A stretch of 64,000 bases of DNA from an uncultured Actinomycetes bacterium (GCA_963810635.1 CAWEOB010000002.1:2320-66319), one strand, 5' to 3'; positions 7,237 through 61,687 are shown, counted from the stretch's first letter. The notes: generated by a model not told the origin, from the sequence alone. Made by a program: numbers and translations.

Positions 7237-7923
7237 ATGGTGAGGGAACATCCCATCCCCGAAGCGACCGTGGGGCGTCTCCCGCTCTACCTGCGAGCTC
7301 TCATCGACCTCGCCGCCGCCGGTGACGCGACGGTTTCGTCGGACGACCTCGCGGAAGCTGCCGGCGTCACCTCGGCGAAGGTGCGCAAGGATCTCTCGTA
7401 CCTGGGCTCCTACGGCACGCGCGGGATCGGCTACGACGTGGCCTATCTGATCCAGGAGATCCGCCGAGAGCTGGGTCTGACGCAGCACTGGGCGGTCGCG
7501 ATCGCCGGGGTCGGCAACCTGGGCCAGGCCCTCGCGAACTACAAAGGGTTCGCCGACCGCGGGTTCCGTCTCGCGGCGCTGGTCGACGCGGATCCGGGGA
7601 AGGTGGGGGAGGAGATCGATGGTCTGCGGGTCCATCATGTGGACGATCTCCCCGCGCTGGTCAAGCGGCACGGCATCGCGATCGGGATCGTGGCCACACC
7701 CGCCCAGGCGGCCCAGGGTGTGGTCGACCGGATGGTCGCAGCCGGGATCAGGAGCATCCTGAACTTCGCCCCTGCGGTCGTCACGGTGCCTGCCAGCGTG
7801 TCGTTGCGGAAGGTGGATCTGGCGATCGAGCTCCAGATCCTCGCGTACTACGAGCAGCAGCGGGGCATGGTTCCCCAGGTCAAGCGCCGCCCCGGGTCAC
7901 GTTCGCTCACTTCGCGATCGTGA
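7237..7923 (+). CDS. rex: redox-sensing transcriptional repressor Rex
   Basis: 228 aa. Winged-helix N-terminus (IPEATVGRLPLYLRAL...LSYLGSYGTRGIGYDV) and Rossmann motif (VAIAGVGNLGQALANY), characteristic of Rex. Confidence 0.92.
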   Translation: MVREHPIPEATVGRLPLYLRALIDLAAAGDATVSSDDLAEAAGVTSAKVRKDLSYLGSYGTRGIGYDVAYLIQEIRRELGLTQHWAVAIAGVGNLGQALANYKGFADRGFRLAALVDADPGKVGEEIDGLRVHHVDDLPALVKRHGIAIGIVATPAQAAQGVVDRMVAAGIRSILNFAPAVVTVPASVSLRKVDLAIELQILAYYEQQRGMVPQVKRRPGSRSLTSRS

Positions 7924-8017
7924 CCCACACGATCGCCGCGACCACGATGATCATCAGGGTGAACAGGATGAACTGAACGCTGCCCTGATCCAGGAGGGGG
8001 ACTTCGGCTCCGAGCAT
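7907..8017 (-). CDS. candidate 36-aa single-TM micro-protein at the 3' end of the Rieske/cyt b operon
   Basis: Found by hand because it is below the track length cutoff. ATG 8017 is preceded by GGAGAGGAGGGAAG. The product is MLGAEVPLLDQGSVQFILFTLMIIVVAAIVWVTIAK. It has the same orientation as the operon, lies 34 nt after the upstream gene, and overlaps the rex 3' end by 17 nt. Confidence 0.35.
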   Translation of the reverse strand: MLGAEVPLLDQGSVQFILFTLMIIVVAAIVWVTIAK

Positions 8018-8051
8018 CTCTTCTTCCCTCCTCTCCCCGCAGGGCGTTCGG

Positions 8052-8757
8052 TCAGTTCGGCCCGTACCATGCCGGCGCCGCGCCGCCGGTCAGGAACTGC
8101 TTGCGCTTGCGTTCGGCACGGTCGAGCAGGGGCACATGCACGATGAAGAGCAGGGTGGAACCGATCAGGAACATCCACGAGTACCGCGCGACGCTCCCAC
8201 CGTCGTAGTACATCGACACGGTGGTCTGCGGGCCGCCACCGGTGAAGAACGCGGTCACCACGGCCAGCTGCGACCCGTCGTCCCCCGTCGCGAACGACGT
8301 GGACCGGACCGCGAACTGCGTCGAGGTGATGGCCGTCAGGTCCTCGTGGTCGATCCCGAGCTCCTCGTTCGCCTGATCGGCGAGGAACGCCGTGGCGGCG
8401 CTCTGGACGGACTGGATGTCGGCCGATTCGTCGGGGTCGGTGAGATCGGCCACCTTCCACGGCTCTGCCGGATAGGCATCGAACGTCGCGTTCGTTTCGT
8501 TCGCGGCCGAGAGCCCTGCCGAGGCCACCACCCAGGCAGCCTCCGAGCCTCGCGGCCCGAGGTTGGTCGGTGTGTCGGGACCTTGGGCCCAGAAGCCGAA
8601 CACCCAGAGCGAGGATTGGATGATCGATCCAGCCGAAGAACGCGACGGCGAGGACGAGGTAGCCGAGGTACCTCCCGAACACGGCCGCCAGCAGCACGTA
8701 GACGCTGCCGACGAACAGGATGAGGGCCGCGATGAGGACGCCGGCGCCCTTCGCCAT
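8052..8757 (-). CDS. membrane protein of unknown function (last large gene of the Rieske/cyt b operon), with an apparent frameshift at 8622-8629
   Basis: The N-terminus MAKGAGVLIAALILFVGSVYVLLAAVFGRYLGYLVLAVAFFGWI lies in the frame of ORF 7954..9294. It continues as IQSSLWVFGFWAQGPD... in ORF 8052..8603. The break falls on GATCGATC. Confidence 0.55.
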
Positions 8758-8801
8758 GGTGCCGCACTCGACCCCGAACCCGAGGCAGGATGCGCCGATC
8801 A

Positions 8802-9515
8802 TCAGGGCCGCTCCAGCACGGTGCCGTCGGTCTGCGCCTTCTCGATCGCGCGAGCCTCCGCATCCGGATTCAGACAGATGTTGTCTTCGAACGGGACCAC
8901 GCTCGAGCTGTAGTCGATCAGGTAGGTCACGATGTCGTTGATCTGCTGATCCGTGAGGGCGCCGGCGTAGCGGATGCTCCACGACGGCATCTGGTTCCGG
9001 CCCTCCCGGATGACCTGATAGATGTCCTCCTCGCGCGCGATCGCAGGGTGAGCGCCGTTCAGGTTGCCTTCGCAGATCGTGGACAGGTTCGGGGGGTACG
9101 CGTACGAGTCGCCCGCCACGATGATGCCGCCCTTCAGCTCGGGTCCGTGGCAACGCGTGCAGCCGACCCCGAGCTGGTTCTCCTCCGTGTAGGGATGCAC
9201 AGCCCGCGAGCCACGATCGAGAGCGAGCGCACGGAGCTCCTCTTCCTGGGCGAGGTTGCGGTCGGGTTCCACCAGCCACTGCAGGGGGAACCACACGACG
9301 AAGAACGCCAGGAGCAGGACGCCCCAGCCCTGGTACCGCTGCAACAGCGGTGTCTCGAGCGCGGCGTCGGACGGACCTGGACGCATGCCGTGCGGGATCT
9401 CGGGCGCCTTGCCGCGAGCCCTGCTCCGGGTGATCAGCGCCCCGATGGACACGAGGATCAGCACCCCACCCAGGACGAGCAGGATGACCCCGGCGATGTT
9501 GCTCTCCGCCAGCAT
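8802..9515 (-). CDS. membrane-anchored monoheme c-type cytochrome
   Basis: The internal start MLAESNIAGVILLVLGG at 9515 is preceded by GGAAGGG. There are two N-terminal TM segments, a single CXXCH (GCTRCHG) and a downstream NQMP candidate Met ligand. Confidence 0.8.
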   Translation of the reverse strand: MLAESNIAGVILLVLGGVLILVSIGALITRSRARGKAPEIPHGMRPGPSDAALETPLLQRYQGWGVLLLAFFVVWFPLQWLVEPDRNLAQEEELRALALDRGSRAVHPYTEENQLGVGCTRCHGPELKGGIIVAGDSYAYPPNLSTICEGNLNGAHPAIAREEDIYQVIREGRNQMPSWSIRYAGALTDQQINDIVTYLIDYSSSVVPFEDNICLNPDAEARAIEKAQTDGTVLERP

Positions 9516-9529
9516 CCCTTCCGGCACCT

Positions 9530-10237
9530 CTATCCCGCCGCCACGCAGAACGGACCCTGCGGAGGCTGATCGATGGTGTTCGTCCCTCTCGGCGGACCCA
9601 GGACGACCTCGGACGTGTCGACCGTGACCAGGTCGCCCTCGATCGTGATCTTGAACCGGTCGAGGCCGCGTGGCGCCGGGCCGAGCTGATACTCGCCCGC
9701 GCCGTTGTACTTCGAGCCGTGGCACGGGCACTCGAACCACTTGGACGAGTTGCAGAACGGGACGCGACAACCGAGGTGGACGCACCGCTGGTAGAGCGGC
9801 ATCAGACCGTCGGTCGCGACCTGTTCCTCCGGGTAGTTCGCCAGCCCTTCGCCCGGCTGACCGTTCCAAGGGACCAGGTAGAAGCGGCCCGCTCCGTTGT
9901 AGACGAACCCCTCGGCGTCGGCCTGTGCCTGGAGCTCGGACAGGTTCCCGGCCGTGATCACCGAGCCGAACCCGCCGCGGAGGTTCGGCCACAGGAACGC
10001 GATGGTGCCGGCACCGAACTCGGCCCCGAACACGAGGACCGACGTGATGAGCGACCGACGGAAGAAGTCGCGACGCGACATGGCGGCGACCGGCTTCGAA
10101 GGTGCGGCGCCCGGCTCGGCCGCCGCCGCCGCCTCCCGTGCTCGCCTGCTCGCCTTCATGGACTGCAGCATGAAGATCGTGACGAACAGGATCACGCCGA
10201 GGAGGGCCAGGATCACCGCGATGGTCGCGTTGCTCAT
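9530..10237 (-). CDS. qcrA: Rieske [2Fe-2S] subunit of the cytochrome bc-type complex
   Basis: [10 protein letters not shown]... at 10237. Tat-like SRRDFFRR motif. Rieske boxes CVHLGCRV and CPCHGSKY. Its start overlaps the stop of the upstream gene by 4 nt. Confidence 0.9.
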
Positions 10238-11064
10238 AGCTCGAAGAACACCCCTTGCGCCCAGGGCCAGATCCAGTTGTAGCCCGGGCCGCGCATGAAC
10301 GAACCGATGATCGTGAGCACCGCGCCGAACGTGAACAGGATGGTGAACATGGTGATCGCGACCTTGCGATCGCCGGGTCGCACGCTCGGGTTGCGGTCGA
10401 CGAAGGGGACGGCGGCCAGCCCGACGAGGATGAACGTGGGGATCGAGATCCCCGCCACCATGGGGTGGAAGTAGCGGAGCAGCTCCTGGAGTCCCAAGAA
10501 GTACCAGGGCGCCTTCGACGGGTTCGGGGTGAGGTTCGGGTTGGCCACCTCGCGGAGCGGGGCGTTGATGAACGTGGAGAACACCAACAGGCCCGCGAAC
10601 AGGATGAGCATGGCCACGAACTCCTCGATCAGGAGGTGCGGCCACACGTTCACGCGGTCGCCCTGCTCGCGCTCGACCCGCTGGATGCCCTCGGGGGGGA
10701 CGAGGGCGAGGAGCCGGTGCTTGTCGGGCGCGCCCTTCTTCGGCGTGGGGAGGTTCCCCGTAGGCAGAGGAGCCTCGCGCTGCGCGGTGGTGACGGTGGG
10801 TGCGGCCGTGGCGACGGCTGTCGCGGCGGGAGCCGCGGCAGCCGCGGGTGCGGCGGACGCGGGAGCTGCAGCTGCTGCCGCGGCGGGCGCCGCGGCAGCA
10901 GCGGGCCGCTCCTCGACCTCGTCGGGGTGCGCGGCACGGTAGCTCCGGATCGCCTTGGACCGCGCGCGGCCCTCGGCGATCCGACGATCCACGCCGGTGG
11001 CCATCTGCGCGTCGAGCTCCTGCTGGTAGATCTCGAGGTCTTTCGGAGAGTCTTCCCAGGTCAT
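10234..11064 (-). CDS. cytochrome b C-terminal-domain protein (subunit IV / PetD-like) with a long Ala/Pro-rich N-terminal extension
   Basis: 276 aa with a [20 protein letters not shown] motif and three TM helices. The N-terminal roughly 110 aa are low complexity ([35 protein letters not shown]). Confidence 0.85.
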
Positions 11065-11072
11065 GTGCGCTC

Positions 11073-11845
11073 CTAGAGAGGGCCCGATACCCGCCGTCCT
11101 TGCGGATCCGCCAGAAGTGGACCGCCAGGAAGATGACCAGCACGAAGGGGAGCGCGAGCACGTGCAAGACGTACCAGCGCAGCAGCGTCTGCGGGCTCAC
11201 GATGGCGCCGCCCAGCAGGAGGAAGTTGGCTTGCTTGGCGATGAACGGCGAGTACCCGGCGAGCGAGGTCCCCACCGTGACCGCCCAGATCGCCAGCTGG
11301 TCCCAAGGGAGCAGGTAGCCGGTGAACGACAGGCCGAGCGTCAGGAACAACAGGACGACCCCGACCACCCAGTTGAACTCGCGCGGCGGCTTGTAGGCGC
11401 CCGTGTAGAAGACACGAGCCATGTGCAACGTGACCGACAGCACCATGAGGTGGGCTCCCCACCGGTGGAGGTTCCGCATCAGATCCCCGAAGAACACACC
11501 GGTGCGGATCGTCTGCATGTCCTGGTACGCGATGGCGCCGCCCAAGTCGGCCATGGGCCGGTAGAAGAACATCAGGAAGATGCCGGTGAGCGTCAGCAGC
11601 ACGAAGAGGAAGAACGAGAGACCACCGAGGCAGAACGTGTAGGTGAGCTTCAAGCCGTGCCGCTTCACCTTCGTGGGGTGCAGGTGGTACAGCACGTTGT
11701 TCATGGTGGCCAGCGCCCGATCGCGCTGCGTGTCCTTGTAGCCCTTCCGGTAGATGGAGCCGGGACGGAAGATGGACTTCCAGACCTCGGTCTCGCGGAG
11801 GCGGTCGCCGACCTGGCTCGGCGACGGCAACTTGATCTTCGCCAC
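11073..11845 (-). CDS. qcrB: cytochrome b6-like subunit (four-helix N-terminal half of cytochrome b), with an apparent 1-nt frameshift near its 3' end (about 11085-11092)
   Basis: GTG 11845 is preceded by GGGGAAGGGGGG. Heme-ligand His pairs occur in [23 protein letters not shown] and [27 protein letters not shown] shift at the GGG run gives ...GG(V)SGPL-stop (TAG at 11075..11073), followed by AGGAG and the ATG of the next gene. Without the shift, the ORF reads through three genes (793-aa artefact). Confidence 0.85.
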
Positions 11846-11943
11846 GTCCCCCCTTCCCCTGGCTACCGGCTGTCCGGCCGCGTCACGTCCGGCTGTATCA
11901 CGTCGGTCCAAGCCCCTCGGTCATCGCGGTTCGTTCCCCTGGA

Positions 11944-12339
11944 TCACTCCGGCGCAGCCTGTGAGGTCGGCACGTCGGCCATGGTGCGCGCTCCACCCGA
12001 CGCCTCGGGCAGTCGCGCATAGTACAGCGTGTCGGTGGGGCAGCGATCGACACAGACGGAGCACCGGGTGCAGGCGTTGTCGTCGACCACGAAGATCGCG
12101 TTGGAAGCTCCGACCTCGGCGCCGACGGCTTCCTCGGCGGCTCCTTCGACGATGTCCGGGGACATCATCCAGATGCAGTTCCACGGGCAGACGTCCTCGC
12201 AGGCCCGGCACAAGATGCAGTTGTCGGGGTCGAGCATGAGATGTTTCGGGGACTTCACGCCCTGGCTGAGCCACGTGACGTCGACGGCCTCGACGACGTA
12301 GTCGTCGTGGATGTCCACCTCGGTCTTGTTGAAGGGCAT
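11944..12339 (-). CDS. 2x[4Fe-4S] ferredoxin-type protein encoded inside the Rieske/cyt b operon
   Basis: 131 aa with two CxxCxxCxxxCP motifs (CILCRACEDVCP, CTRCSVCVDRCP). ATG 12339 is preceded by TAGGAGCGCCG, which includes the stop of the upstream gene. Confidence 0.85.
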   Translation of the reverse strand: MPFNKTEVDIHDDYVVEAVDVTWLSQGVKSPKHLMLDPDNCILCRACEDVCPWNCIWMMSPDIVEGAAEEAVGAEVGASNAIFVVDDNACTRCSVCVDRCPTDTLYYARLPEASGGARTMADVPTSQAAPE

Positions 12340-12347
12340 CGGCGCTC

Positions 12348-12798
12348 CTAGCGGTATCCGCCCGTCGGCCTCGTGTCGCCCGAGCCGCCCCGCAGCTTCT
12401 TCCGCCAGTTCTGCATGGCGGCCGCGACCACGAGCACGGTGATGATCGGTCCTGTCGTCAGGCCCATGGCGATGGCATCGCGGAGTTGCAGCAGCGTCTC
12501 ATCGCTCGGGACCGGGAAGCTGTTGAAGAACCAGACGCTCTCCCAGACGAAGGGCTGCTTCAGGAAGGCCTCGAAGATCCGTGGGACCGCCCCAGCCGAG
12601 GGTCTGCTCGGAGAAGTACATCCAGAACGACGGCATGACCGCCGACGTCATCAACAGGAAGAAGATGAGTGCGAAGGAGAACAGGACGGCGTTCGTCCAG
12701 GACCACTCGAAGTCGCGGACGGATGTCTCCATCCGGGAACGCATGCCATGGGTCCGCTGCTTGAGCGGAGACTTCGTGACGACGTCGACCTGGCTCAT
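12348..12798 (-). CDS. small membrane protein, first gene of the Rieske/cyt b operon, with an apparent frameshift around 12576-12594
   Basis: ORF 12499..12798 (MSQVDVV...WTNAVLFSFALIFFLLMTSAVMPSFWMYFSEQTLGW) loses sense. The adjacent frame, by my translation, reads RIFEAFLKQPFVWESVWFFNSFPVPSDETLLQLRDAIAMGLTTGPIITVLVVAAAMQNWRKK... and ends at TAG 12350..12348. Confidence 0.5.
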
Positions 12799-12918: not shown

Positions 12919-12948
12919 GAGCGCTCGTGAATCCTTTCACGAGCGCTC
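12919..12948. promoter_or_regulatory. 30-nt perfect inverted repeat with a Rex-operator-like core (TCGTGAA-N4-TTCACGA) in the divergent region between the Rieske/cyt b operon and ccdA
   Basis: gagcgctcgtgaa-tcct-ttcacgagcgctc, read directly. The core at 12925..12942 differs from TTGTGAA-N4-TTCACAA at two symmetric positions. Confidence 0.55.
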
Positions 12949-20617: not shown

Positions 20618-21448
20618 ATGGGCGCCCTTCCCTGGCACGCGCACGCCGACGTCTGGTTCGTCTTCATCTCGCTCAGCGCCGCGTATCTGGTGGCGTGCCG
20701 CCGGCACCTCGCTCGGACCGGCGAGGTCACACCGCGGAAGCGGAAGGTCTTGTTCCTGGGCGGCGTCGGCCTCCTGTGGCTGGCGTCCGACTGGCCGATC
20801 CATGACCTCGCCGAGCAGCGCCTGTACTCCGTGCACATGGTGCAGCACATGCTCTACACGCTCGTCGCCGCTCCGCTCCTGATCACGGGAACACCGGCGT
20901 GGCTCTGGCGGAACATCGTGTCGCCTCGCCCGCTCCGTGTCGTCTTCCGCTTCCTGACGCGGCCCCTCGTGGCGTTGCTGTTCTTCAACAGTGTCCTGCT
21001 CTTCACGCACTGGCCGGCGGTCGTGGCGGCTTCCGTGGGATCCGAGCTCACCCACTTCCTGCTCCACGTGCTCGTGGTCGGGTCGGCCGTGTGCATGTGG
21101 TGGCCCGTGGTCTCCCCGCTCGCGGAGATGCCGGCGCTCTCACCGCCGGGGCAGATGATCTACCTGTTCCTGCAGTCGCTCGCGCCCACGATCCCGGCGT
21201 CGTTCCTGACCTTCGGCCGGTCGCCGCTCTACCCCGTCTACGAGGCCTTCCCCCGGATCTGGGGTATCACGGCGCTGAACGACCAGCTGATGGCCGGGCT
21301 GATCATGAAGCTGATCGGCGGCTTCATCCTCTGGGGCGTGATCGCGTTCGTGTTCTTCAGGTGGGCGGCGCGGGAGCAGCGTGGGGGATGGGACGAATCG
21401 GCGTGGCGCAACGTCGACCGCGAGGTCCACGCGGAGCTGCGCCGGTGA
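20618..21448 (+). CDS. ctaG: cytochrome c oxidase assembly factor CtaG (Bacillus caa3_CtaG type membrane protein)
   Basis: ATG 20618. Multi-TM protein with HMVQHMLYTLVAAPLLITG and WWPVVSP motifs. It follows ctaF directly. Confidence 0.7.
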   Translation: MGALPWHAHADVWFVFISLSAAYLVACRRHLARTGEVTPRKRKVLFLGGVGLLWLASDWPIHDLAEQRLYSVHMVQHMLYTLVAAPLLITGTPAWLWRNIVSPRPLRVVFRFLTRPLVALLFFNSVLLFTHWPAVVAASVGSELTHFLLHVLVVGSAVCMWWPVVSPLAEMPALSPPGQMIYLFLQSLAPTIPASFLTFGRSPLYPVYEAFPRIWGITALNDQLMAGLIMKLIGGFILWGVIAFVFFRWAAREQRGGWDESAWRNVDREVHAELRR

Positions 21449-22434
21449 CCGATCGCTCCCCGTCCCCGCGCGTTGCCCTGCTCCCGGCGATCGTGATCCC
21501 GCTCGTCTGCCTCGTGTTCATCGGGATCGTCCTGTGGACGTTCTCGCGCGTGCTCCTCCAGCTCAGCCACATCGCCGCCACCGCCACCGCACTGGCGGTA
21601 GCCGTCGGCATCCTGGCGGTCGCCGCGTTCGTGGCCAGTCGCAAACAGGTCGGGAGCGGCGCGGTGTTCTCCATGATCGGTGGGGTCTTCGGTGTCACCA
21701 TGCTCGCGGGCGGCATCGCTCTGCTCGTGGGGCAGCCGAGCGAAGGGGGCGGGGAGGCCGTGGTCGTGGCGATCGCCGCACCTGAGGGTGCCGCCACGAA
21801 CGGCTACAGCACCACCACGCTCAACGCGCCGGCCAACGTGGCCTTCACGATCGCGTTCGACAACGAGGATCCGGGGATCCAGCACAACGTGTCGATCGCG
21901 GAGGAGGAGGGCGCGCCGCCCATCTTCGAAGGGACACTCGTGGCCGGCCCGATACAGACCGAGTACCCCATCGAGCCGCTCCCACCCGCGGACTACTTCT
22001 TCTTCTGCACGGCCCACCCCACCGTGATGACGGGAACCCTGACGGTGGCCGAGGGCACCGAGCCCGGCGGTGGAGGTGGGGGCGGGGGTCCGCCCACCAT
22101 CGTGGCGAAGAGCCTGGCGTTCGACACGGACACCCTCTCGTTGCCCGCGGATGCCGAGTCCCCGCTGGTGTTCGACAACGAGGACCCGGGGACGCAGCAC
22201 AACCTCTCGATCTACACGGACGACACCGTCACCGACCAGCTCTTCGAAGGGGAGCTCGTCACCGGGGTCGCGGAGCAGACGTACACCATCCCGCCGCTCG
22301 CCGCTGGCGAGTACTACTTCCGGTGCGACGTCCACACGAACATGAACGGCACCGTGGTCGTGGAGGCACCTGCGGGTGGAGGGGGCGGCGCCGGTGGCGG
22401 CGGTCCGCCGTCCGGGTCACCACCGGGGGGATGA
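21445..22434 (+). CDS. membrane-anchored protein with two tandem cupredoxin (type-1 copper) domains
   Basis: GTG 21445 overlaps the ctaG stop (GTGA). There are three N-terminal TM helices. Two repeats each carry DNEDPG-x-QHN ... C-x2-H-x2/3-M (FFCTAHPTVMTG; FRCDVHTNMNG). A poly-Gly linker and tail are present. Confidence 0.8.
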   Translation: MTDRSPSPRVALLPAIVIPLVCLVFIGIVLWTFSRVLLQLSHIAATATALAVAVGILAVAAFVASRKQVGSGAVFSMIGGVFGVTMLAGGIALLVGQPSEGGGEAVVVAIAAPEGAATNGYSTTTLNAPANVAFTIAFDNEDPGIQHNVSIAEEEGAPPIFEGTLVAGPIQTEYPIEPLPPADYFFFCTAHPTVMTGTLTVAEGTEPGGGGGGGGPPTIVAKSLAFDTDTLSLPADAESPLVFDNEDPGTQHNLSIYTDDTVTDQLFEGELVTGVAEQTYTIPPLAAGEYYFRCDVHTNMNGTVVVEAPAGGGGGAGGGGPPSGSPPGG

Positions 22435-23009: not shown

Positions 23010-24848
23010 TCAGACGACGGCGTCCACGGCGATCGCGCCGAACAGGGCGGCGAGGTAGATCACCGAGTACTTGAAGAGGCCCCACGCCCGATCGTCGCTC
23101 GGCGATCGCCACAGGATGAGCGCCCGGTAGACGAACGCGCCGCCGAGGACGAGCGCGGTCGCGAGGTACACGGGACCCATGGAGGCCACGGGTACGAGCA
23201 ACAGCGTGACCCCGAACAGCACGAGCGAGTACAGGAAGATCTGGCGCCGGGTCTCGTCGTCGCCCCGCACGACCGGCATCATGGGGATCCCGGCGGTGGC
23301 GTAGTCGTCCTGGACCCGCATGGCCAGCGCCCAGAAGTGCGGCGGCGTCCAGACGAAGACCACGGCGAACAGGACCAGGGCAGGCCATGCGAGGGTCCCC
23401 GTTACCGCCGCCCACCCGACCAGCACGGGGACCGCGCCAGCCGCGCCGCCGATCACGATGTTCTGGTCGGTGGAGCGCTTCAGCCACATCGTGTAGACGA
23501 AGACGTAGAAGGCGATGGCCGCGAGCGCCAGGATCGCCGCGAGCACGTTCACCGTGAGGGCGAGGAAGGCGAACGAGACGGCGCCGAGCACGAACCCGAA
23601 CCGCAAGGCGTGCTCCGGGGTCACCTGGTGGCTGGGGAGGGGGCGCTGCCGGGTGCGCCGCATGACCTCGTCGATGTCGCGGTCCAGGTACATGTTGATC
23701 GCGTTGGCCGAGCCGGCGGCGAGGGTGCCGCCGATGAGGGTGGCGAGGATCAGCCAGATGGACGGGACGCCGGCCGCCGCCAGCATCATCGCGGGCACGG
23801 TGGTGATCAGGAGCAGGACGATGATCCGGGGCTTCGTGAGCGCGAGGTAGGCGCGCGCCGCGTCGCGGAGCGACGCGGCGGGCGCCGGGGCGGTGGCCCG
23901 CTGACCGGCCGCGTCGCCGGCCTCGGCCGGCGACGCGGCCTCCCCCGTCCGGGGTTCGTGCCGAGCCGCCACCGCGAGGGCAACCACCGTGCTCCAGATC
24001 AACGCCGACATGGCCACGTGACCCGCCTGGGGGACCGTGGCGAGCTCGGTCACCACGTTGAGGCCACCCAGGATGACCTGACCCACGACGAACACGGCCG
24101 CGAGCGTGGAGAGGTTCACGAGGATCCGCGAGCGGGGCCGCATGGCGCGGGCCCGGATCGCGAGCCAGAGCACCAGGGCGGTCACGACGAGCGCGAGCCC
24201 TCGGTGCACGAACATCTCCATCGCTCCCGTGACCACGAGGGACGGCACCAGCCGGCCGCCCATCAGGGGCCAGTCGCGGAACGCGAGCCCGGCCCCCTCG
24301 GCGCGCACGTAGGTGCCCACCAGCAGGAGGGCGTACGTAGCCGCCACCGTCCAGGCGGCGAGCCGGGCGAAGCCCGGGTCGGCGGCGGGACGGTCGCCGA
24401 GGTAGGCGAGCGCCGTGATCACCACGGTCGCGGCGAGCGCGATGAACGCCACGGCGAAATGGACGGTGACCACGCGGGGGTCGAGGTCCGAGAGCACGAC
24501 CCAGCCTCCGAGCGCTCCCTGCACGGCGAAGAGGGGGGCGAGGCCGACGGCCAGCCAGGCCGCCGCGGCGGGCACGGGGAGCGCGGTCCCACTCCACCGA
24601 TGGCGGAGCAGCATGACGATCGCGACGATCGCGAGCCCGATCGAGAGACCCCCGCTCAGGACCGCCAGCGCGCGATGCAGGTACTCGATGAGGGTGTGGT
24701 ACTCGACGCGCGGCACCCACGAGCCGAAGCAGCGTGGCCAGTCCGGGCACCCGTCCCCGGACCCGGTTGCGCGGACGATGCCGCCCCACGCGATCAGGAG
24801 CAGCGTCGAGGCGGTGGTGGCGACGGCGAGCCGGCGGAATGCCTTCAT
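23010..24848 (-). CDS. fused heme A synthase (CtaA/COX15) - heme O synthase (CtaB, protoheme IX farnesyltransferase)
   Basis: Start MKAFRRLAVATT at 24848. The N-terminal half carries GDGCPDWPRCFG and His-containing helices (CtaA). After an Ala-rich linker, the C-terminal half carries LTKPRIIVLLLITT, NMYLDRDIDEVMRRTRQRPL and WTPPHFWALA (CtaB). Confidence 0.88.
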   Translation of the reverse strand: MKAFRRLAVATTASTLLLIAWGGIVRATGSGDGCPDWPRCFGSWVPRVEYHTLIEYLHRALAVLSGGLSIGLAIVAIVMLLRHRWSGTALPVPAAAAWLAVGLAPLFAVQGALGGWVVLSDLDPRVVTVHFAVAFIALAATVVITALAYLGDRPAADPGFARLAAWTVAATYALLLVGTYVRAEGAGLAFRDWPLMGGRLVPSLVVTGAMEMFVHRGLALVVTALVLWLAIRARAMRPRSRILVNLSTLAAVFVVGQVILGGLNVVTELATVPQAGHVAMSALIWSTVVALAVAARHEPRTGEAASPAEAGDAAGQRATAPAPAASLRDAARAYLALTKPRIIVLLLITTVPAMMLAAAGVPSIWLILATLIGGTLAAGSANAINMYLDRDIDEVMRRTRQRPLPSHQVTPEHALRFGFVLGAVSFAFLALTVNVLAAILALAAIAFYVFVYTMWLKRSTDQNIVIGGAAGAVPVLVGWAAVTGTLAWPALVLFAVVFVWTPPHFWALAMRVQDDYATAGIPMMPVVRGDDETRRQIFLYSLVLFGVTLLLVPVASMGPVYLATALVLGGAFVYRALILWRSPSDDRAWGLFKYSVIYLAALFGAIAVDAVV

Positions 24849-24945
24849 GGGGTGGGTGCGGCGGTCGGGCCATGATACCGGCGGCCGATCGTCGACACGC
24901 CCGGGGCACCTCGCCCGCCACGGGCCTTGCGATACTGGCCCCACG

Positions 24946-25822
24946 ATGACGGCTGGGATCTCGGACGCCTCGGGGCTGCTGCTCCTGCGGGACCGGGTGG
25001 ACGACGTCCTCCGCGAGTTCCTGGAGGCGCGCCGTCTCGAGCTCGGCTGGATCGACCCCCACGCCGTCGAGCCGCTCGACGAGCTGATCGGCCTCATCGA
25101 GGCCGGCGGCAAGCGCCTGCGTCCGGCCTTCTGCTACTGGGGGTTCCGCGCCGGGGGAGGCGAGGACGGCGAACCGATCCTGCTCGCGGCGGCATCCTTC
25201 GAGCTCTTGCACACCATGGCGCTGATCCACGACGACGTCATGGACGGGACGGCGATGCGACGGAACCGGCCTGCGACCCACGTGCGCCAGGCGGAAGCCG
25301 CGGCGGGCCGTGGCGTCCCCGAATCCGGAGCGGGTCGGCGCCGCCGTCGCCATCCTGGCCGGGGATCTCGCTGCCGTCCTCGCCGACCAGCTCCTCTTGG
25401 AGGCGGGCTTCCCGCCCGAGCGGCTCGCCGCCGCGCTCGCTCGCTATCATCGGATGCGTCTCGAGATGGCGGCGGGCCAGTTCCTGGACCTGACCGATGC
25501 CGACGCCGACGCGCGTCGCCTGGCCTTCCTCAAGGGAGGGTCGTACACGGTGCTCGGGCCGCTGCTGGTGGGCGCAGGGCTGGCCGGCGCGCCCGAGGAC
25601 GTGGAGACATGTCTGCGCCGCTTCGGCGAACCGCTCGGGCAAGCGTTCCAACTCCTCGACGATCTGCGGGATGAGGACGGCGTCGGCGGGGTCACACTCG
25701 ACGACGTGCGCGCCTTGGTGGGCGACGCGACGTCGGCGCTCGACCCGGCCGTGCTCGGGGCGGCCGCTGCGCAAGCGCTCGCGACCCTGACCGAGCTCGC
25801 GATGGGAGCCGAGGCTCGGTGA
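24946..25822 (+). CDS. short-chain polyprenyl diphosphate synthase (FPP/GGPP synthase-like), with an apparent frameshift around 25295-25330
   Basis: The first Asp-rich motif (LIHDDVMD) is in the frame of ORF 24415... The AILAGDL and second motif (FQLLDDLRDE) are in ORF 25310..25822. Confidence 0.8.
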
Positions 25823-26334: not shown

Positions 26335-26352
26335 TTGTGAAACATTTCACAA
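26335..26352. promoter_or_regulatory. Rex operator (perfect TTGTGAA-N4-TTCACAA)
   Basis: ttgtgaaacatttcacaa, read directly. It lies 32 nt upstream of GTG 26384, which heads the reductase-nuoA-N gene string. Confidence 0.8.
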
Positions 26353-26383: not shown

Positions 26384-27637
26384 GTGAGCGCCGAGCGGAC
26401 GATCGAGACCGACGTCCTGGTGGTGGGCGCCGGGCCCGGCGGCTCCACCGCCGCCTACTACCTCGCGCGCCACGGCCTCGACGTCACCGTCGTCGAGAAG
26501 GCGACCTTCCCGCGCGAGAAGGTGTGCGGCGACGGCATCACGCCGCGCGCGGTGAAGTCGTTGCTGGCGATGGGCATCGATTGCGATGATCCTGCGTTCG
26601 AACGGGTGATCGGCCTGCGCGTCTACTCGCGGGCCACCACGATCGACCTCCCCTGGCCCGAGCTCGAGACCTACCCCGACTTCGGCCTCGTGATGCCTCG
26701 GGACGGGTTCGATCAGCTGCTCGCGCAGCGGGCCGTGAAGGCGGGGGCTCGCCTCCTCGAGGCCACGGAGGCGGTCGCACCGATCATGGACGACGGGTGG
26801 GTCACGGGAGCACGCACGCGCCCGGCGGGCGAGCCCGCCGCCGACGGCACCGTCATCCGCGCTCGTTGCACGATCGCGTCCGACGGTGCCGCCAGCCGCT
26901 TCGCCAAACCCGCGGGCGTGCGTCGCGACGACACACGCCCGCTCGGCATCGCCGCACGGCGCTACTACCGTGTTCCCTACCACCCCGGCCCATGGCTCGA
27001 GTCGTGGCTCGATCTGTGGGACGGCGAGATGCTCCTGCCGGGCTACGGCTGGTTGTTCCCCATGGCGGGAGGCCGCATCAACCTGGGCGCGGGGCTCCTC
27101 AACACCTTCCGCAACTTCAAGGACGTGTCGGCGCAGCAGCTGTTCTCGGTGTTCGCCGGGATGCTCCCGGACGAGTGGGGGATCTCCGAGGAGACGGCCG
27201 AGGGACGCACCCTCTCGGGTCCGCTGCCCATGAGCGTCAACAGGATCCCACCGGCGGTGCCGGGGCTCCTGCTGATCGGCGACGCCGCCGGCGCCGTGAA
27301 CCCGTTCAACGGTGAGGGCATCGCCTACGCGATGGAGACGGGCGAGATCGCCGCGGACCTCGTCCATGAGGCCATCGTCCACGACCGTCCCGCGCTCACG
27401 ATGATGTATCCCCACGTCCTGCGGGACCGCTACGGGCGCTACTTCTTCATCGGCCGGCAGTTCGCCAAGATCGTCGGGAACCCGGCGGCGATGGGGTTCT
27501 TCACGAACCACCTGCTCCCGAACCCGACGGTGATGCGCTTCGCCCTGCGCGTCATGGGGAACCTCTCGGACGGACCCGACGGCGACTTCCAAGACCGCCT
27601 CTTCCACGTGGCGCAGCGGATCGCGCGGGCATCGTGA
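26384..27637 (+). CDS. geranylgeranyl reductase-family FAD-dependent oxidoreductase (MenJ-like)
   Basis: 417 aa with VLVVGAGPGGSTAAYYLA, KVCGDGITPRA and LIGDAAGAVNPFNGEGI motifs. Confidence 0.85.
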   Translation: MSAERTIETDVLVVGAGPGGSTAAYYLARHGLDVTVVEKATFPREKVCGDGITPRAVKSLLAMGIDCDDPAFERVIGLRVYSRATTIDLPWPELETYPDFGLVMPRDGFDQLLAQRAVKAGARLLEATEAVAPIMDDGWVTGARTRPAGEPAADGTVIRARCTIASDGAASRFAKPAGVRRDDTRPLGIAARRYYRVPYHPGPWLESWLDLWDGEMLLPGYGWLFPMAGGRINLGAGLLNTFRNFKDVSAQQLFSVFAGMLPDEWGISEETAEGRTLSGPLPMSVNRIPPAVPGLLLIGDAAGAVNPFNGEGIAYAMETGEIAADLVHEAIVHDRPALTMMYPHVLRDRYGRYFFIGRQFAKIVGNPAAMGFFTNHLLPNPTVMRFALRVMGNLSDGPDGDFQDRLFHVAQRIARAS

Positions 27638-27656
27638 TCCGTAGGACGGCGGCCGC

Positions 27657-28109
27657 ATGCTGAGCAGCTACCTGCCGATCGTCGTGCTCGCTGCGCTCGC
27701 CACCGTGTTCGCAGTGGCGTCCCTGGGGGCGTCGTCGCTCCTACGTCCGCACAAGCCGAACCCGGTGAAACTGTCCGCGTACGAATGCGGCAACGACCCG
27801 GTCCGGCTCCCCCGGGGCGAGCGCTTCAGCGTGAAGTTCTACCTGGTGGCGATGCTCTTCATCATCTTCGACATCGAGACGATCTTCCTCTTCCCCTGGG
27901 CTGTCACGTTCCGGCAGCTGGGGTTGTTCGGGCTCGTGGAGATGGCGGTGTTCATCGGTCTCGTTCTCGTTGCGTACGTCTACGTCTGGCGCAAGGGCGG
28001 CTTCGAGTGGGCCGGCGGCGAACGACCCGACACTGCGGAGCGTGAGTCGGACGAGGCGCTCGAGACCGCGCCCGAGCGGGAGCTGGAGGGAGCCCGCGGT
28101 GCCGGTTGA
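27657..28109 (+). CDS. nuoA: NADH-quinone oxidoreductase subunit A
   Basis: YECGNDP and [15 protein letters not shown] motifs. It has an acidic C-terminal tail. Confidence 0.92.
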
Positions 28110-28617
28110 GCGGATCGAAGGTGTGCACCTCGGGACGACCCCCGAGGAGGTCGAGGAGGAGGTCGAGCGCGGGGTCCTGTTGACCTCGCTCGACCGGGCG
28201 GTGGGCTGGGCTCGCAAGCAGTCGATGTGGCCCGCCACGTTCGGCCTCGCCTGCTGCGCGATCGAGATGATGTCCACCGGCGCGGGTCAGTACGACCTCT
28301 CGCGGTGGGGCATGGAGCTGTTCCGCGCGTCGCCTCGCCAAGCCGATCTGATGATCGTGGCCGGCCGCGTCTCGCAGAAGATGGCGCCGGTGCTGCGCCG
28401 GATCTACGACCAGATGGCCGACCCGAAATGGGTCATCTCCATGGGGGTGTGCGCCTCCGCCGGGGGCATGTTCACGAACTACGCCATCGTGCAGGGCGTC
28501 GACACCATCGTGCCCGTCGATGTCTACGTGCCCGGCTGCCCCCCGAAGCCCGAGATGCTCATGCACGGGATCTTGACCCTCCAGCAGAAGGTCCGGACGT
28601 CGGAGCCGTTCCGGTGA
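28099..28617 (+). CDS. nuoB: NADH-quinone oxidoreductase subunit B
   Basis: GTG 28099. Cluster N2 ligands [18 protein letters not shown] and VPGCPPKPE. Confidence 0.92.
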
Positions 28618-29114
28618 GACCGGAGCAGTTGGCGGACTCGGTCCGGGAGCGGTTGCCGGATGTGCTCGTGGTCCGCGACGAGGTCGTCGCCGTCGTCGAT
28701 CGCGACGACCTGCTGGCGACGTTGCGGTGGCTGCGCGACCGTCGAGAGGTGGAGCTCGGATTCCTCTCCGATGTCACCGCCACGGACTGGCCGGAGACCG
28801 AGCCGCGCTTCTGGCTCGCCTACGACCTCCGGTCGATGGACGAGAAGCATCGCCTCCGGTTGAAGGTCGGCCTGCCCGGGCACGACGCTCGGGCGCCGAG
28901 CGTGACCCCGATGTTCCCGACCGCCAACTGGCAGGAGCGGGAGGTCTTCGACTTCTACGGGATCGTGTTCGACGGGCACCCGGACCTGACCCGGATCATG
29001 ATGCCCGACGACTGGGAGGGCCATCCCCTCCGCAAGACCGAGGAGCTCGGCGGGGTCCCCACGTGGTTCGTGGGCGCCACGATGCCCCCGATCGACCAGC
29101 GGGGCATGGCGTGA
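28614..29114 (+). CDS. nuoC: NADH-quinone oxidoreductase subunit C
   Basis: GTGA overlap with nuo[26 protein letters not shown]...GHPLRK motif. Confidence 0.9.
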
Positions 29115-30427
29115 GCGCGAGGGAGCTCCCGGGCGCGGACGATGGGATGGAGGTCGCTCGCGACGGGCTCGAGGTCGAGCTCCGCGATGCCGTCACAGGT
29201 GAGCTCCGCCAGGAGACCATGATCATCAACATGGGTCCCCAGCACCCGTCGACCCACGGGGTGCTGCGCCTCCTGCTCGAGCTCGACGGCGAGACGGTGG
29301 TGACCTGCAAGCCGGTGATCGGCTACCTCCACACGGGCATCGAGAAGAACACCGAGTACCGCACCTGGATGCAGGGTGTGACCTACGTGACGCGGGCGGA
29401 CTACCTCTCGCCCTTCTTCAACGAGCTCGGCTACTGCATGGCGGTGGAGCGTCTGCTCGGGATCGAGGCGCCGCCGCGCGCCCAGGTGCTCCGGGTGCTG
29501 GTCTGCGAGCTGAACCGGATCTCGTCCCATCTGGTCTGGCTGGCGACCGGTGGTCTCGAGCTCGGGGCGGTCTCGGTCATGCTGTATGGCTTCCGCGAGC
29601 GCGAGATGATCCTCGACATCTTCGAGGCCATCACGGGTCTCCGGATGAACCACGCGTACATCCGGATCGGCGGGGTCGTCATGGACCTTCCCGAGGACGG
29701 TCCGCGGCGGATCCGCGAGCTGCTGGGCGTGCTCCCGGGGCGGTTCGACGAGTACGAGACCCTGCTGAACGACAACCCGATCTGGCGGGAGCGCAACGAA
29801 GGGGTCGGCATCCTCACGGCCGAGCAGGCGCTGGCGCTCGGGGTGACGGGGCCGGTCCTCCGTGCAGCTGGTGTCGACGCCGACCTCCGCAAGGACATGC
29901 CCTACGGCGGCTACGACACCTACGACTTCGAGGTGCCGGTGCGAGAGGAAGGCGACTCGTACGCGCGGTACGCGATCCGGATCGAAGAGATGCGTGAGTC
30001 CCTGAAGATCGTGGAGCAGGCCCTCGACCGCTGGGAGGAGACCCCCGGCGACGTGATGGTGGACGACCCCAAGGTCCGCTGGCCGGCGAAGCTCTCGGTG
30101 GGCCCCGACGGCATCGGCAACGATCCCGCGTACCTCAGCCACATCATGGAAGGATCCATGGAGGCCCTGATCCACCACTTCAAGATGGTGACGCAGGGCG
30201 TGGAGGTCCCCCCGGGGGAGGTCTACCAAGCCATCGAGTCCCCGCGCGGTGAGCTCGGCTTCTACGTCGTGTCGAACGGCGAGCACCGGCCGTATCGCGT
30301 GCACATCCGCGACCCCTCCTTCGTGAACCTGCAAGCGCTCCCGGTCATGCTCGAGGGCGGCTTGATCGCCGACGCGGTGGCCGCCAACGCGTCACTCGAT
30401 CCCGTGATGGGTGGTGTGGACCGCTGA
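29111..30427 (+). CDS. nuoD: NADH-quinone oxidoreductase subunit D
   Basis: GTGA overlap with nuo[26 protein letters not shown] and DPVMGGVDR motifs. Confidence 0.93.
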
Positions 30428-31002
30428 TGCCGGTCTTCGCCGGGGTCGCGCACGACGAAGCGCGCGCCATCATCGGCCGGTATCCGTCCGGACACGAGCG
30501 CTCCGCCGTGATGCCTCTGCTCTACCTGGCCCAGTCGATCGACGGCATGGTCTCGCGCGACGCGCTGCGTGAGATCGGTGGGCTCCTCGGGATCACCACC
30601 GCCGAGGTCGAGGCGGTCGCCTCCTTCTACACGATGTACCGCCTCCGTCCCACCGGCGAGCATGTGGTGAACATCTGCACGAACCTCGCGTGCAAGCTGC
30701 GCGGCGCCGGCGACGTGTACGAGGCGGCGCATCAGGCGGCCGAGATGCCGCACGGCCAGGAGATCTCCGACGACGGTCTCCTGACCCTCCACGAGGAGGA
30801 GTGTCTCGGGGTCTGCGACTTCGCGCCGGCCGTGCAGATCGACTTCGCGAACCACGACGGGGTCTCGCCGGAGCGGATGCGCGACCTGGTTGCGCGACTC
30901 CGCGCCGGCGAGACCCCGGAACCGTCGCGCGGGCCTGCGTTCGCGAGCTTCCGCGCCGCGTCGCGGGCGCTCGCGGGCCTCCAGGAGGTCCCGGCTCCGT
31001 GA
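30427..31002 (+). CDS. nuoE: NADH-quinone oxidoreductase subunit E
   Basis: TGATG overlap with nuoD. [2Fe-2S] ligands in ICTNLACKLRG and ECLGVCDFAP. Confidence 0.9.
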   Translation: MPVFAGVAHDEARAIIGRYPSGHERSAVMPLLYLAQSIDGMVSRDALREIGGLLGITTAEVEAVASFYTMYRLRPTGEHVVNICTNLACKLRGAGDVYEAAHQAAEMPHGQEISDDGLLTLHEEECLGVCDFAPAVQIDFANHDGVSPERMRDLVARLRAGETPEPSRGPAFASFRAASRALAGLQEVPAP

Positions 31003-35882: not shown

Positions 35883-36370
35883 GCGACCCGCCGGAGCGCC
35901 GCGCCCCCGGCTGGTGGGCCATCGCGAAGGGGATGGGCACGGTCTTCAAGCAGACCTTCCGCCGGGACAACACGGAGCAGTATCCGAAGGAGATCGTGCA
36001 GCCCCCCGAGCGGTCGCATATCGGGCGGCATCTCCTGAACCGACACGAGAACGGCCTGGAGAAGTGCATCGGGTGCGAGCTCTGCGCCTACGCGTGCCCG
36101 GCGGACGCGATCTGGGTCGAGGGCGCCGACAACGACCCGGAGGCTCCGGTGAGTCCGGGGGAGCGTCACGCGAAGGACTACCAGATCAACTACCTGCGCT
36201 GCATCATGTGCGGCCTGTGCGTCGAGGCGTGCCCGACGCGCGCGCTCACGCTCACGAGCTACTACGAGATGGCGTTCACGTCGCGGGAGGACGCGATCTG
36301 GACGAAGGAACGGCTGCTCGAGCCGCCGCCGCCGCTCGGCAGCGACCCGATCGACCGCGAGGGTCGCTGA
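35879..36370 (+). CDS. nuoI: NADH-quinone oxidoreductase subunit I
   Basis: ATGA overlap with nuo[13 protein letters not shown] and [12 protein letters not shown] motifs. Confidence 0.92.
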
Positions 36371-36969: not shown

Positions 36970-37271
36970 GGACACCGATCGCCTACTTCGTGATGCTCTC
37001 CGGGATCCTGTTCGCCCTCGGAACGGTCGGCGTCCTGACGCGTCGCAACGCCCTGGTGATCTTCATGTCGATCGAGCTGCAGCTGAACGCGGTGAATCTC
37101 GCGCTCGTCGCCTTCTCGCGGATGCACAACCAGCTCACGGGCCAGGTGCTCGCCTTCTTCTCGATGGTCGTGGCCGCCGCCGAGGTCGTCGTCGGCCTCG
37201 CCATCATCGTCGCGCTCTACCGCCGTCGGCGGACGGTGGACGTCGACGACGCCCGGGAGCTGCGGTGGTAG
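36966..37271 (+). CDS. nuoK: NADH-quinone oxidoreductase subunit K
   Basis: 101 aa with [27 protein letters not shown] and [13 protein letters not shown] motifs. Confidence 0.92.
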
Positions 37272-46710: not shown

Positions 46711-46711
46711 C

Positions 46712-49008: not shown

Positions 49009-49041
49009 GAAGGAGCCGATCGTGGAACCGAAGGGGAACCG

Positions 49042-50583: not shown

Positions 50584-50590
50584 GGCTTCC

Positions 50591-61686: not shown

Positions 61687-61687
61687 C

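Follow-up and report, generated by a model that had tools for sequence, protein, structure and literature searches.

A Cytochrome b6-Type Complex III Operon with an Embedded Ferredoxin Gene in Uncultured Actinomycetes

Introduction

Why does a gene coding for a soluble-type ferredoxin lie inside an operon coding for a Rieske/cytochrome b complex, and might its product be a part of that complex? The question is raised by a stretch of 64,000 nucleotides (nt) from an uncultured Actinomycetes bacterium (GCA_963810635.1 CAWEOB010000002.1:2320-66319; G+C content about 68%), which was analyzed over its whole length and is referred to hereafter as the window. The minus strand of the window carries, from 12798 to 7907, eight genes coding, in this order, for a membrane protein (mpN), a ferredoxin (Fd), a cytochrome b6-type subunit, a subunit IV (SUIV)-like protein, a Rieske protein, a cytochrome c, a second membrane protein (mpC), and a peptide of 36 amino acids (aa). 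This order, proposed in a first reading of the DNA (the original prediction), was recovered in the gene calls made from the listing of the open reading frames (ORFs), the three-frame translation, and the Pfam and NCBIfam scans of the window. On the basis of the data reported below, we favor, with moderate confidence, the idea that the locus codes for a b6c-type menaquinol:cytochrome c oxidoreductase, i.e., a relative of cytochrome b6f, with an Fe-S subunit of its own that is located in the cytoplasm and exchanges electrons on the side of heme bH/ci. The full texts searched do not mention any ferredoxin in a Rieske/cytochrome b operon of actinobacteria, the operon figures of Dibrova et al. 2013 (PMC3839093) lying outside the text that was covered.

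Synteny of the Ferredoxin Gene and the Rieske/Cytochrome b Genes

The comparative analysis covered 80 species-level genomes, all of them metagenome-assembled genomes (MAGs), and metagenome loci retrieved with the most divergent Fd members as seeds; in the counts given below, the loci harboring a gene are reported over the loci long enough to harbor it. The cytochrome b gene lies directly downstream of the Fd gene in 76/76 genome loci and in 67/67 metagenome loci, and in none of these 143 informative loci was the Fd gene found in another context. The same constancy relative to Fd was observed in the genome loci for the genes of SUIV (60/60), the Rieske protein (57/57), and cytochrome c (53/53), as well as for mpN, located upstream of Fd in 78 loci out of 79, while mpC is present in all the loci of sufficient length (51/51 from genomes and 33/33 from metagenomes). 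The original prediction had made its reading depend on the synteny of the ferredoxin and the flanking membrane protein genes with the Rieske/cytochrome b genes in related genomes, and this synteny was indeed found. Fd and both of the larger membrane proteins belong invariably to the module.

The adjacency of Fd and cytochrome b is not restricted to close relatives, since it spans at least four Fd subfamilies sharing 39-56% mutual identity; related Fd subfamilies were retrieved by a sensitive search at 35-56% identity. The Acidimicrobiales version of Fd, which comprises more than 2100 clusters and shares about 40% identity with the window protein, belongs to the same module: the operon includes the genes for a 152-aa membrane protein, Fd, b6, SUIV (with the motif APWY), the Rieske protein, a diheme cytochrome c, and a 342-aa membrane protein, directly followed by nuoABCD. 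In two of these Acidimicrobiales loci (L083 and L084), the mpC counterpart is larger (303-342 aa) and nuoA-D come at once after it, so that complex III and complex I genes are contiguous. All the named relatives are labelled "Actinomycetota/Actinomycetes bacterium" or "Acidimicrobiales bacterium". A short contig (CAYFXO010000169.1, 2010 bp; L066) assigned to the MAG "uncultured Methanomassiliicoccales archaeon" harbors a ccdA-mpN-Fd-cytochrome b array of actinobacterial type, and its archaeal label is probably due to a binning error.

The Ferredoxin

The Fd gene (11944-12339, minus strand) codes for a 131-aa protein matched by Fer4 (E 5e-13), Fer4_7, and other Pfam families, and predicted to bind two [4Fe-4S] clusters. 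Its two motifs, CILCRACEDVCP and CTRCSVCVDRCP, are two complete CxxCxxCxxxCP signatures, whose cysteines (C41-C51 and C90-C100) show no variation among 99 sequences. The protein has neither a signal peptide nor a Tat motif and, in the absence of an export signal, it is expected to be cytoplasmic; its net charge is -14, and a DDYxxExVDxxWL segment is conserved at its N-terminus. This family-specific N-terminal segment and an insert are conserved across lineages.

Fd remains under the NCBIfam cut-offs of the named ferredoxin families (score/cut-off: NuoI 38.7/113, RnfB 39/68.7, FdxA_Actino 32.9/125), and the NuoI genes of the window lie elsewhere (35879-36370 and 45773-46210). When clustered at 90% identity, 1023 clusters match the window Fd and at least 2866 match the profile of the Fd family. 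The members of the family bear database names such as "NADH-quinone oxidoreductase subunit I", "formate hydrogenlyase subunit 6", and "dihydropyrimidine dehydrogenase PreA subunit", which are misleading since none of them fits the invariant genomic context.

The degree of conservation was evaluated across the 80 genomes (77 loci in the case of Fd) as the median identity to L002, a 1.1-Mb contig of a relative in which all eight genes are intact. The highest value was shown by cytochrome b (88%), followed by Fd (81%), SUIV and the oxidase subunit COX1 (77% each), Rieske (61%), mpC (55%), cytochrome c (53%), and mpN (46%). Among the proteins of the operon, Fd ranks second in conservation, behind cytochrome b, and it also exceeds COX1; it is shown to be under strong purifying selection. 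Some representative matches, with Fd at residues 120-220, had the appearance of mpN-Fd or Fd-cytochrome b gene fusions; these turned out to be out-of-frame read-throughs of frameshifted assemblies.

The Core Complex

The original prediction also stated that the operon is not of the QcrCAB type and that it combines a split b6-type cytochrome b with a monoheme cytochrome c, a description borne out by Pfam, NCBIfam, and motif counts. Cytochrome_B (E 5e-42) and Cytochrom_B_C (E 7e-9) matched two separate ORFs, i.e., the b6-type subunit (11073-11845, minus strand; about 257 aa, with a GTG start codon) and the SUIV-like protein (10234-11064, minus strand; 276 aa), respectively. The split of cytochrome b is unambiguous in intact relatives such as L002, where a 249-aa b6 and a 276-aa SUIV are separated by a 14-nt gap; in the window it is obtained only after the correction of a 1-nt deletion (see below), so that in this respect the claim does not hold for the sequence as written.

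The best solved relatives of the b6-type subunit are the b6 proteins of cytochrome b6f (E 3e-43, PDB alignment). In this alignment, FCLGG corresponds to YCLGG (Cys35) of spinach and Chlamydomonas b6, i.e., the position of the heme-ci cysteine, and the four histidines embedded in NLHRW, TLHMA, VLHVL, and AVHFW correspond to the ligands of hemes bL and bH. The cysteine of the CxGG motif is a predicted covalent ligand of heme ci, and the corrected C-terminus (...RKDGGVSGPL) is b6-like. Concerning the NCBIfam models, the protein narrowly passes cytb_ExtP (291.2 versus a cut-off of 290) and scores 202 bits, under the cut-off of 325, with the b6 model. At the N-terminus, a basic extension (about 45 residues, net charge +10), which includes the sequence ....N.VLYHLHPxKVKRH, is invariant across all the Fd-linked subfamilies; the Fd-less ExtP profile starts at residue 48, without the first 47 residues of the window protein. 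The stretch VLYHLHPxKVKRH, with its three histidines, is located just before helix A (residues about 52-66, i.e., about 11690-11650 on the minus strand); it is invariant in the related loci and is shared with the ExtP profile.

The SUIV-like protein carries an N-terminal extension of about 140 residues, cytoplasmic and provided with an Ala/Pro-rich linker, and its Qo motif is APWY (SKAPWYFLG) rather than PEWY, which places the complex in the APWY clade. The original prediction mentioned neither this motif nor the heme-ci cysteine and the N-terminal extension of cytochrome b. According to Kao and Hunte (2014, PMC4122944), the members of this clade possess CxGG motifs and none of them has been characterized; the same authors reported split cytochromes b in deep-branching Actinobacteria (Ilumatobacter, Rubrobacter, Conexibacter, and Patulibacter).

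The Rieske [2Fe-2S] protein (9530-10237, minus strand; 235 aa; Pfam Rieske E 4e-8) possesses the boxes CVHLGC and CPCHGSKY together with the twin-arginine motif SRRDFFRRS, its best NCBIfam match being the b6f iron-sulfur subunit (E 6e-18). The "S-Y" signature predicts a high redox potential, following the rule quoted in PMC4122944. The cytochrome c (8802-9515, minus strand; 237 aa; Pfam Cytochrom_C/Cytochrome_CBB3 E 7e-8) is membrane-anchored and, as anticipated, monoheme, in that CTRCH is its only CXXCH motif; its Acidimicrobiales homologues (384 aa) are diheme (CQACH and CGRCH). Menaquinone is taken as the quinone of the complex from what is generally known of the phylum.

The Membrane Proteins and the 36-aa Peptide

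The three remaining proteins had been described as uncharacterized membrane proteins; in agreement with this, neither mpN nor mpC nor the 36-aa peptide matched any Pfam or NCBIfam family, PetG/L/M/N homologues included, and a search of solved structures in the PDB with mpN (as a profile) and mpC retrieved nothing (best E 0.45).

The first of them, mpN (12348-12798, minus strand), is a protein of about 149 aa with two transmembrane segments (TMs) and without an assigned family. In 152 related loci an ORF corresponding to mpN ends between -4 and +36 nt from the start of Fd. Its conserved C-terminus (...RKKLRG..RPTGGYR) forms a tail with a charge of +5, whose terminal GGY[RK] is invariant in the window lineage and in the nearer subfamilies, the Acidimicrobiales tail being different. 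The window mpN is homologous to the 152-aa protein of the Acidimicrobiales (hhalign 95.8%, E 6.7e-9). The second one, mpC (8052-8802, minus strand; about 250 aa, family unassigned), starts with two TMs, continues with an extracytoplasmic domain, and closes with a third TM at the C-terminus; homology to the 342-aa protein of the Acidimicrobiales is found at its ends. Lastly, the single-TM peptide of 36 aa, MLGAEVPLLDQGSVQFILFTLMIIVVAAIVWVTIAK (7907-8017, minus strand), is conserved in related loci, sharing 47-72% identity in 39 of them, and is called as a gene in L002 and in the closest relative of the window (L001).

Gene Junctions, Predicted Rex Control, and Genomic Context

The original prediction had emphasized that the start of Fd is tightly coupled to the stop codon of the preceding gene, and the quoted junction, TAGGAGCGCCGATG, was found between mpN and Fd at 12350 to 12337. 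A junction of the same kind, with stop codon, Shine-Dalgarno sequence, and start codon, connects cytochrome b and SUIV (TAGGAGCGCACATG, 11075 to 11062). The 9-mer TAGGAGCGC occurs at both junctions (12350-12342 and 11075-11067, minus strand); in it, the stop codon overlaps a GGAG Shine-Dalgarno sequence and the ATG is located 5 nt further on. The duplicated junction resembles a repeated translational-coupling cassette. In addition to the 8 nt with TAGGAGCGC, tight junctions include the ATGA overlap between the SUIV stop and the Rieske start codons and a 1-nt overlap between the cytochrome c gene and mpC. The 36-aa gene and the convergent rex gene overlap at their 3' ends by 17 nt (7907-7923), and the same overlap exists in L002 (12376-12392).

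A scan of promoters and terminators gave no promoter matches, and the terminator-like matches that it gave fall inside genes. A Rex-operator-like palindrome, TCGTGAATCCTTTCACGA (12925-12942), with two mismatches to TTGTGAA-N4-TTCACAA, is found in the intergenic region between the operon (starting at 12798) and the divergent ccdA gene (13078), 127 nt ahead of mpN. The window contains four matches to this consensus versus 0.2 expected, and an equivalent site (with up to two mismatches) is located upstream of mpN in 60 of 76 related loci and in 0 control regions. A rex homologue (7237-7923) is itself the convergent neighbor of the 36-aa gene. The tight junctions and the conserved candidate operator upstream of the first gene argue for the co-expression of Fd with the rest of the operon, as the original prediction had proposed, and support the view that the operon, Fd included, would be transcribed as a unit from one redox-controlled, predicted Rex promoter.

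The context of the operon is respiratory. On one side it is flanked by ccdA-resB-ccsA, which divergently adjoin the operon in nearly all the related loci, and by the genes for a caa3-type oxidase (a CtaC carrying a cytochrome c domain, CtaD/E/F, CtaG, and a CtaA-CtaB fusion); the opposite flank holds rex, a glutaredoxin-like gene, and an extracytoplasmic function (ECF) sigma/anti-sigma pair. The fused protein (700 aa; 23010-25112, minus strand) unites heme A synthase with heme O synthase (COX15-CtaA and UbiA). After ctaG, a 329-aa cupredoxin-domain protein and a thioredoxin/AhpC-like protein are encoded (21445-22434, plus strand).

A perfect Rex operator, TTGTGAAACATTTCACAA (26335-26352), precedes the gene starting at 26384. 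The latter (26384-27637) is similar to FAD-dependent geranylgeranyl reductases and is located upstream of a complete nuoA-N set (about 27650-42223, plus strand), comprising NuoE/F/G and the NuoI gene at 35879-36370. A further Rex-like site, with three mismatches (43298-43315), precedes a second nuo cluster. This cluster, which follows a polyprenyl synthetase gene (42331-43245), is a partial one of the complex I type (43327-52060, plus strand), where Pfam recognized NuoA, NuoB, NuoC (30 kDa, 171 aa), NuoH, NuoI (145 aa), and NuoJ-N; no NuoD, E, F, or G was found among its gene calls. Without the NADH module, the second cluster may use another donor, such as ferredoxin. With its nuo, b6c, ccs, and cta genes the window is, judging from the predicted operators, a putative Rex-linked respiratory island.

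Frameshifts in the Window Copy

When compared with intact homologues, the operon exhibits three single-base frameshifts, in mpN, in the last five codons of cytochrome b, and in mpC. In mpN, an extra base near 12575 breaks the gene into pieces of 99 and 39 aa in the ORF listing, the homologues having 145-149 aa. In cytochrome b, one base is missing near 11090, so that the ORF as written extends over 793 codons to 9530 and takes in SUIV and Rieske; the protein actually ends in ...RKDGG(V/I)SGPL, with TAG as the stop codon at 11075-11073. In mpC, an extra base near 8626 leaves 183 aa in the ORF listing, compared with 250 aa in the homologues, which start at the ATG at 8802 and not at 8757. The 150-aa and 235-aa ORFs of the original prediction are not intact in the window as written, the frames having been joined across the mpN and mpC insertions. 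In L002 the eight genes code, in order, for proteins of 145, 131, 249, 276, 244, 237, 250, and 36 aa.

Other frameshift candidates were detected across the window by a codon-position hidden Markov model and ORF inspection, at about 699, 25295, 46775, and 47503, plus six between 60316 and 62616. The first four fall in the gene for a DUF-like 247-aa homologue, in a truncated polyprenyl synthetase gene, and in the genes for NuoK2 and NuoL2, respectively, while the six frame switches of 60316-62616 are found in a single minus-strand stretch. The cta, ccs, rex, and sigma genes flanking the operon are uninterrupted. In L001, the closest relative, other genes are broken (ResB and Rex are split), and its alignment to the window contains about 100 gaps over 15 kb; moreover, the relatives carry names in the style of long-read MAG contigs. 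Given the intact homologues and the roughly ten further candidates, we read these indels as assembly errors, and they fit an indel-prone long-read assembly better than a specific decay of the operon.

Possible Role of the Ferredoxin

The next question concerns what the ferredoxin might do in this complex. According to the model that we favor, b6 with hemes bL, bH, and covalent heme ci, together with SUIV (with its APWY Qo motif), the Rieske protein, and the monoheme cytochrome c, would run a Q cycle and pass electrons to the neighboring caa3-type oxidase. The acidic Fd would dock on the cytoplasmic (n) face of the complex, at a surface that might be formed by the basic N-extension of cytochrome b, the long one of SUIV, and the basic mpN tail (GGYR), and its clusters would exchange electrons with heme bH/ci, representing a hard-wired third electron port at the Qi side. 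Electrons might flow from low-potential donors into quinone or, in the opposite direction, the port might serve as an overflow/bifurcation exit, with a quinol-driven reduction of the clusters. We infer the binding of Fd, its position, and its electron exchange with heme bH/ci from the sequence and the gene context. Judging from their b6f homologues, b6 and SUIV have their N-termini on the cytoplasmic side, and both N-termini are extended in the window proteins; moreover, the charges are complementary (-14 for Fd, +10 for the cytochrome b N-extension, and +5 for the mpN tail).

The idea is not without precedents: an n-side Fe-S partner is carried by the b6-type complexes of anammox bacteria (PMC12954380), short cytochromes b are found along with Fe-S oxidoreductases of the cytoplasm (Dibrova et al. 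2017, PMC5600118), and other cytochrome b proteins contain fused 4Fe-4S domains (PMC4122944). In b6f, the feeding of heme ci by ferredoxin/FNR is a proposal of long standing (PMC5600118).

Several points weigh against it. The association of Fd with the complex is deduced from gene neighborhood and primary structure. The charge complementarity is a weak argument, since the cytoplasmic loops of membrane proteins are basic anyway. Typical 2x[4Fe-4S] clusters have potentials far below those of heme bH/ci, which makes both the direction and the feasibility of the transfer uncertain. Two AlphaFold2 models of Fd, obtained with 64 and 99 sequences, had mean predicted local distance difference test (pLDDT) values of 42.2 and 48.5 and were unusable, and no genuine fusion of Fd to a membrane subunit was found among the representative matches. 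Lastly, with three of its eight genes frameshifted, the window copy could be non-functional.

The alternative that best withstands the data, even though we regard it as unlikely, is that Fd (and possibly mpN and mpC) might be a dedicated biogenesis or regulatory factor rather than a catalytic subunit, which need not stay bound to the complex; within the same possibility, it might supply electrons or redox sensing for the attachment of heme ci, for heme/Fe-S insertion, or for oxygen/redox gating. Assembly factors are often found inside respiratory operons, as exemplified in the window by Caa3_CtaG and the CtaA-CtaB fusion beside the cta genes, and the cytochrome c biogenesis genes ccdA-resB-ccsA are divergently adjacent in nearly all loci; the strict synteny itself would fit such a factor as well as a subunit. 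It also counts in its favor that we know of no heme-ci attachment factors outside oxygenic phototrophs, with their CCB pathway. However, mpN and mpC are not similar to CCB1 or to other known maturation families at E <= 0.1, and Fd is conserved like the catalytic subunits (81% versus the 53-61% of cytochrome c, ResB, and Rieske), which would be unusual for an assembly factor. Besides, to our knowledge, the Firmicute and cyanobacterial heme-ci complexes manage without an operon ferredoxin of this kind.

A bolder version of the favored model, which we consider rather doubtful, is that of an electron-bifurcating complex III or, as its mirror image, of a hard-wired ferredoxin:quinone reductase at heme ci. 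In the former case, a high-potential "S-Y" Rieske protein combined with low-potential menaquinone would be pulled by the caa3 oxidase, and the second quinol electron would travel through very low-potential bL/bH/ci hemes and end on the bound 2x[4Fe-4S] protein; an extra inter-monomer heme might be bound by the histidines of YHLHP..KVKRH, similarly to what was predicted in anammox bacteria. If this were true, aerobic respiration would directly make reduced ferredoxin, the electron not being recycled to the quinone pool. The mirror-image activity has long been debated for b6f in cyclic electron flow.

It is quite improbable that Fd is an ordinary soluble carrier, merely co-transcribed with the operon and serving, for instance, 2-oxoacid oxidoreductases or P450s. 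A small size, an acidic character, a soluble-type 2x[4Fe-4S] structure, and generic database names are what one would expect of such a carrier; nevertheless, the location immediately upstream of cytochrome b in 143/143 informative loci, the conservation across lineages of the family-specific N-terminal segment and insert, the scores under the cut-offs of all the named ferredoxin families (FdxA included), and the constant translational adjacency of the partner membrane protein mpN all speak against it. Finally, it is very improbable that the three frameshifts are real and that the operon is a decaying pseudogene cluster in the window genome: even though three indels in 4.9 kb contrast with none in the about 10 kb of flanking cta/ccs/rex genes comparable with homologues, and the mpC indel is outside any homopolymer, about ten more candidates are scattered over the rest of the window (NuoK2, NuoL2, and the 60.3-62.6 kb run among them), about 0.9 frameshifts would be expected in 4.9 kb (P(>=3) about 0.06, by our own estimate), the coding sequences are, indels aside, 65-96% identical to their homologues, with no stops or decay and a third-position G+C (GC3) near 0.9, the broken genes and about 100 alignment gaps of L001 are typical of long-read consensus errors, and the neighboring caa3 oxidase and cytochrome c biogenesis system would be left without an electron donor.

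Rieske/cytochrome b complexes belong to the most thoroughly investigated energy converters. Whatever its role, Fd is, together with its partner membrane protein, genetically tied to a predicted heme-ci-type b6 complex across at least 2866 clusters (at 90% identity), carried by soil lineages known only from MAGs and by Acidimicrobiales, and the feeding of heme ci by ferredoxin in b6f is still unsettled. If Fd were indeed a subunit, the complex would offer a minimal, naturally occurring case of a complex III with an n-side Fe-S port, and it would link the proposal of an NAD(P)-reducing complex in anammox bacteria, the scenario of Dibrova et al. of an ancestral cytochrome b associated with a cytoplasmic oxidoreductase, and the debate on b6f as a ferredoxin:quinone reductase. 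In this case, the electron-transport models of these common soil and aquatic Actinomycetota would change.

Comparison with Known Complexes

The comparison of the window operon with known systems brings it close to cytochrome b6f (PetB/PetD/PetC), with which it shares the split into a four-helix b6 and a three-helix SUIV, the heme-ci cysteine in CxGG, the ...RK.GISGPL end, and the CPCHGS.Y signature of the Rieske protein. Unlike b6f, it has a class-I monoheme cytochrome c in place of cytochrome f, APWY instead of PEWY at the Qo site, and about 45 and 140 extra N-terminal residues in cytochrome b and SUIV, respectively; in addition, it encodes Fd and mpN/mpC, in a context that is respiratory (caa3 oxidase) and not photosynthetic.

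In the b6c complexes of Firmicutes and heliobacteria (QcrABC/PetCBDA), the Qo motif is PDWY/PEWY. In Bacillus, SUIV is fused to cytochrome c, the two being encoded by separate genes in the window operon. We know of no ferredoxin gene in the Firmicute or heliobacterial b6c operons. The likeness to these complexes, described in part in PMC4122944, lies in a respiratory or menaquinone-dependent b6-type protein, in heme ci, and in a c-type cytochrome that replaces cytochrome f.

As for the Geobacter ExtOPQ complex (extHIJKLMNOPQS), the window cytochrome b reaches the ExtP cut-off, and APWY and CxGG are present as in the APWY clade; in contrast, the window SUIV scores 51 versus the ExtQ cut-off of 150. 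In Geobacter, the ext cluster encodes cytochromes with 4 to 12 hemes along with a porin and a rhodanese, and no ferredoxin (PMC5877670), whereas the operon under study is accompanied by ccdA/resBC/cta/rex and by none of the multiheme ExtKLMNS, the porin ExtI, and the rhodanese ExtH. The possibility that ExtM might be a ferredoxin was ruled out, as ExtM is a 12-heme cytochrome (PMC5877670).

The anammox complexes Kuste4569-4574 and Kustd1480-1485 are b6-type, with heme cN and an n-side cytoplasmic Fe-S subunit proposed to take the low-potential electron of bifurcation; a quinol bifurcation making NAD(P)H has been proposed for them, with a high-potential Rieske protein operating with menaquinone, and in AlphaFold3 models an N-terminal histidine of cytochrome b (His43 in Kuste4571, His62 in Kustd1481) binds an extra inter-monomer heme b (PMC12954380). 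The window Rieske protein is also of the S-Y kind. However, the Fe-S partner in anammox bacteria is large, binds NAD(P) and FAD, and contains four Fe-S clusters, whereas here it is a 131-aa, two-cluster protein without a flavin or nucleotide domain, and the hexa-/octaheme cytochromes of the former are replaced here by a monoheme cytochrome c beside a caa3 oxidase. As far as the comparison goes, the window complex is not of the anammox type, and what the two would have in common is only the idea of an n-side Fe-S partner, for which the functional analogy stands.

An Fe-S module beside a bc-type or four-helix cytochrome b is likewise a feature of the "PDWF-FeS clade" and of the membrane dehydrogenases in which a cytoplasmic Fe-S subunit is combined with an anchor of diheme cytochrome b (PMC4122944, PMC5600118). 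In those systems the Fe-S module is fused and the Qo motif is another one, or Rieske and SUIV are missing, whereas here a separate small Fe-S protein is accompanied by a complete Rieske/b6/SUIV/c set.

With the actinobacterial QcrCAB (the bc1 complex of CIII2CIV2), the window operon shares the phylum and the predicted reaction from menaquinol to cytochrome c oxidase; however, QcrB is unsplit (about 540 aa), QcrC is diheme, and QcrCAB has neither a heme-ci cysteine motif nor a ferredoxin. In agreement with this, the window proteins score far under the cut-offs of the actinobacterial NCBIfam models (QcrB 109/500, QcrA 33/275, QcrC 17/200). Taken together, the comparison indicates that the predicted complex is neither a QcrCAB nor a Geobacter Ext complex and that it resembles the b6f/b6c ones in its split cytochrome b, histidine ligands, CxGG motif, and Rieske boxes.

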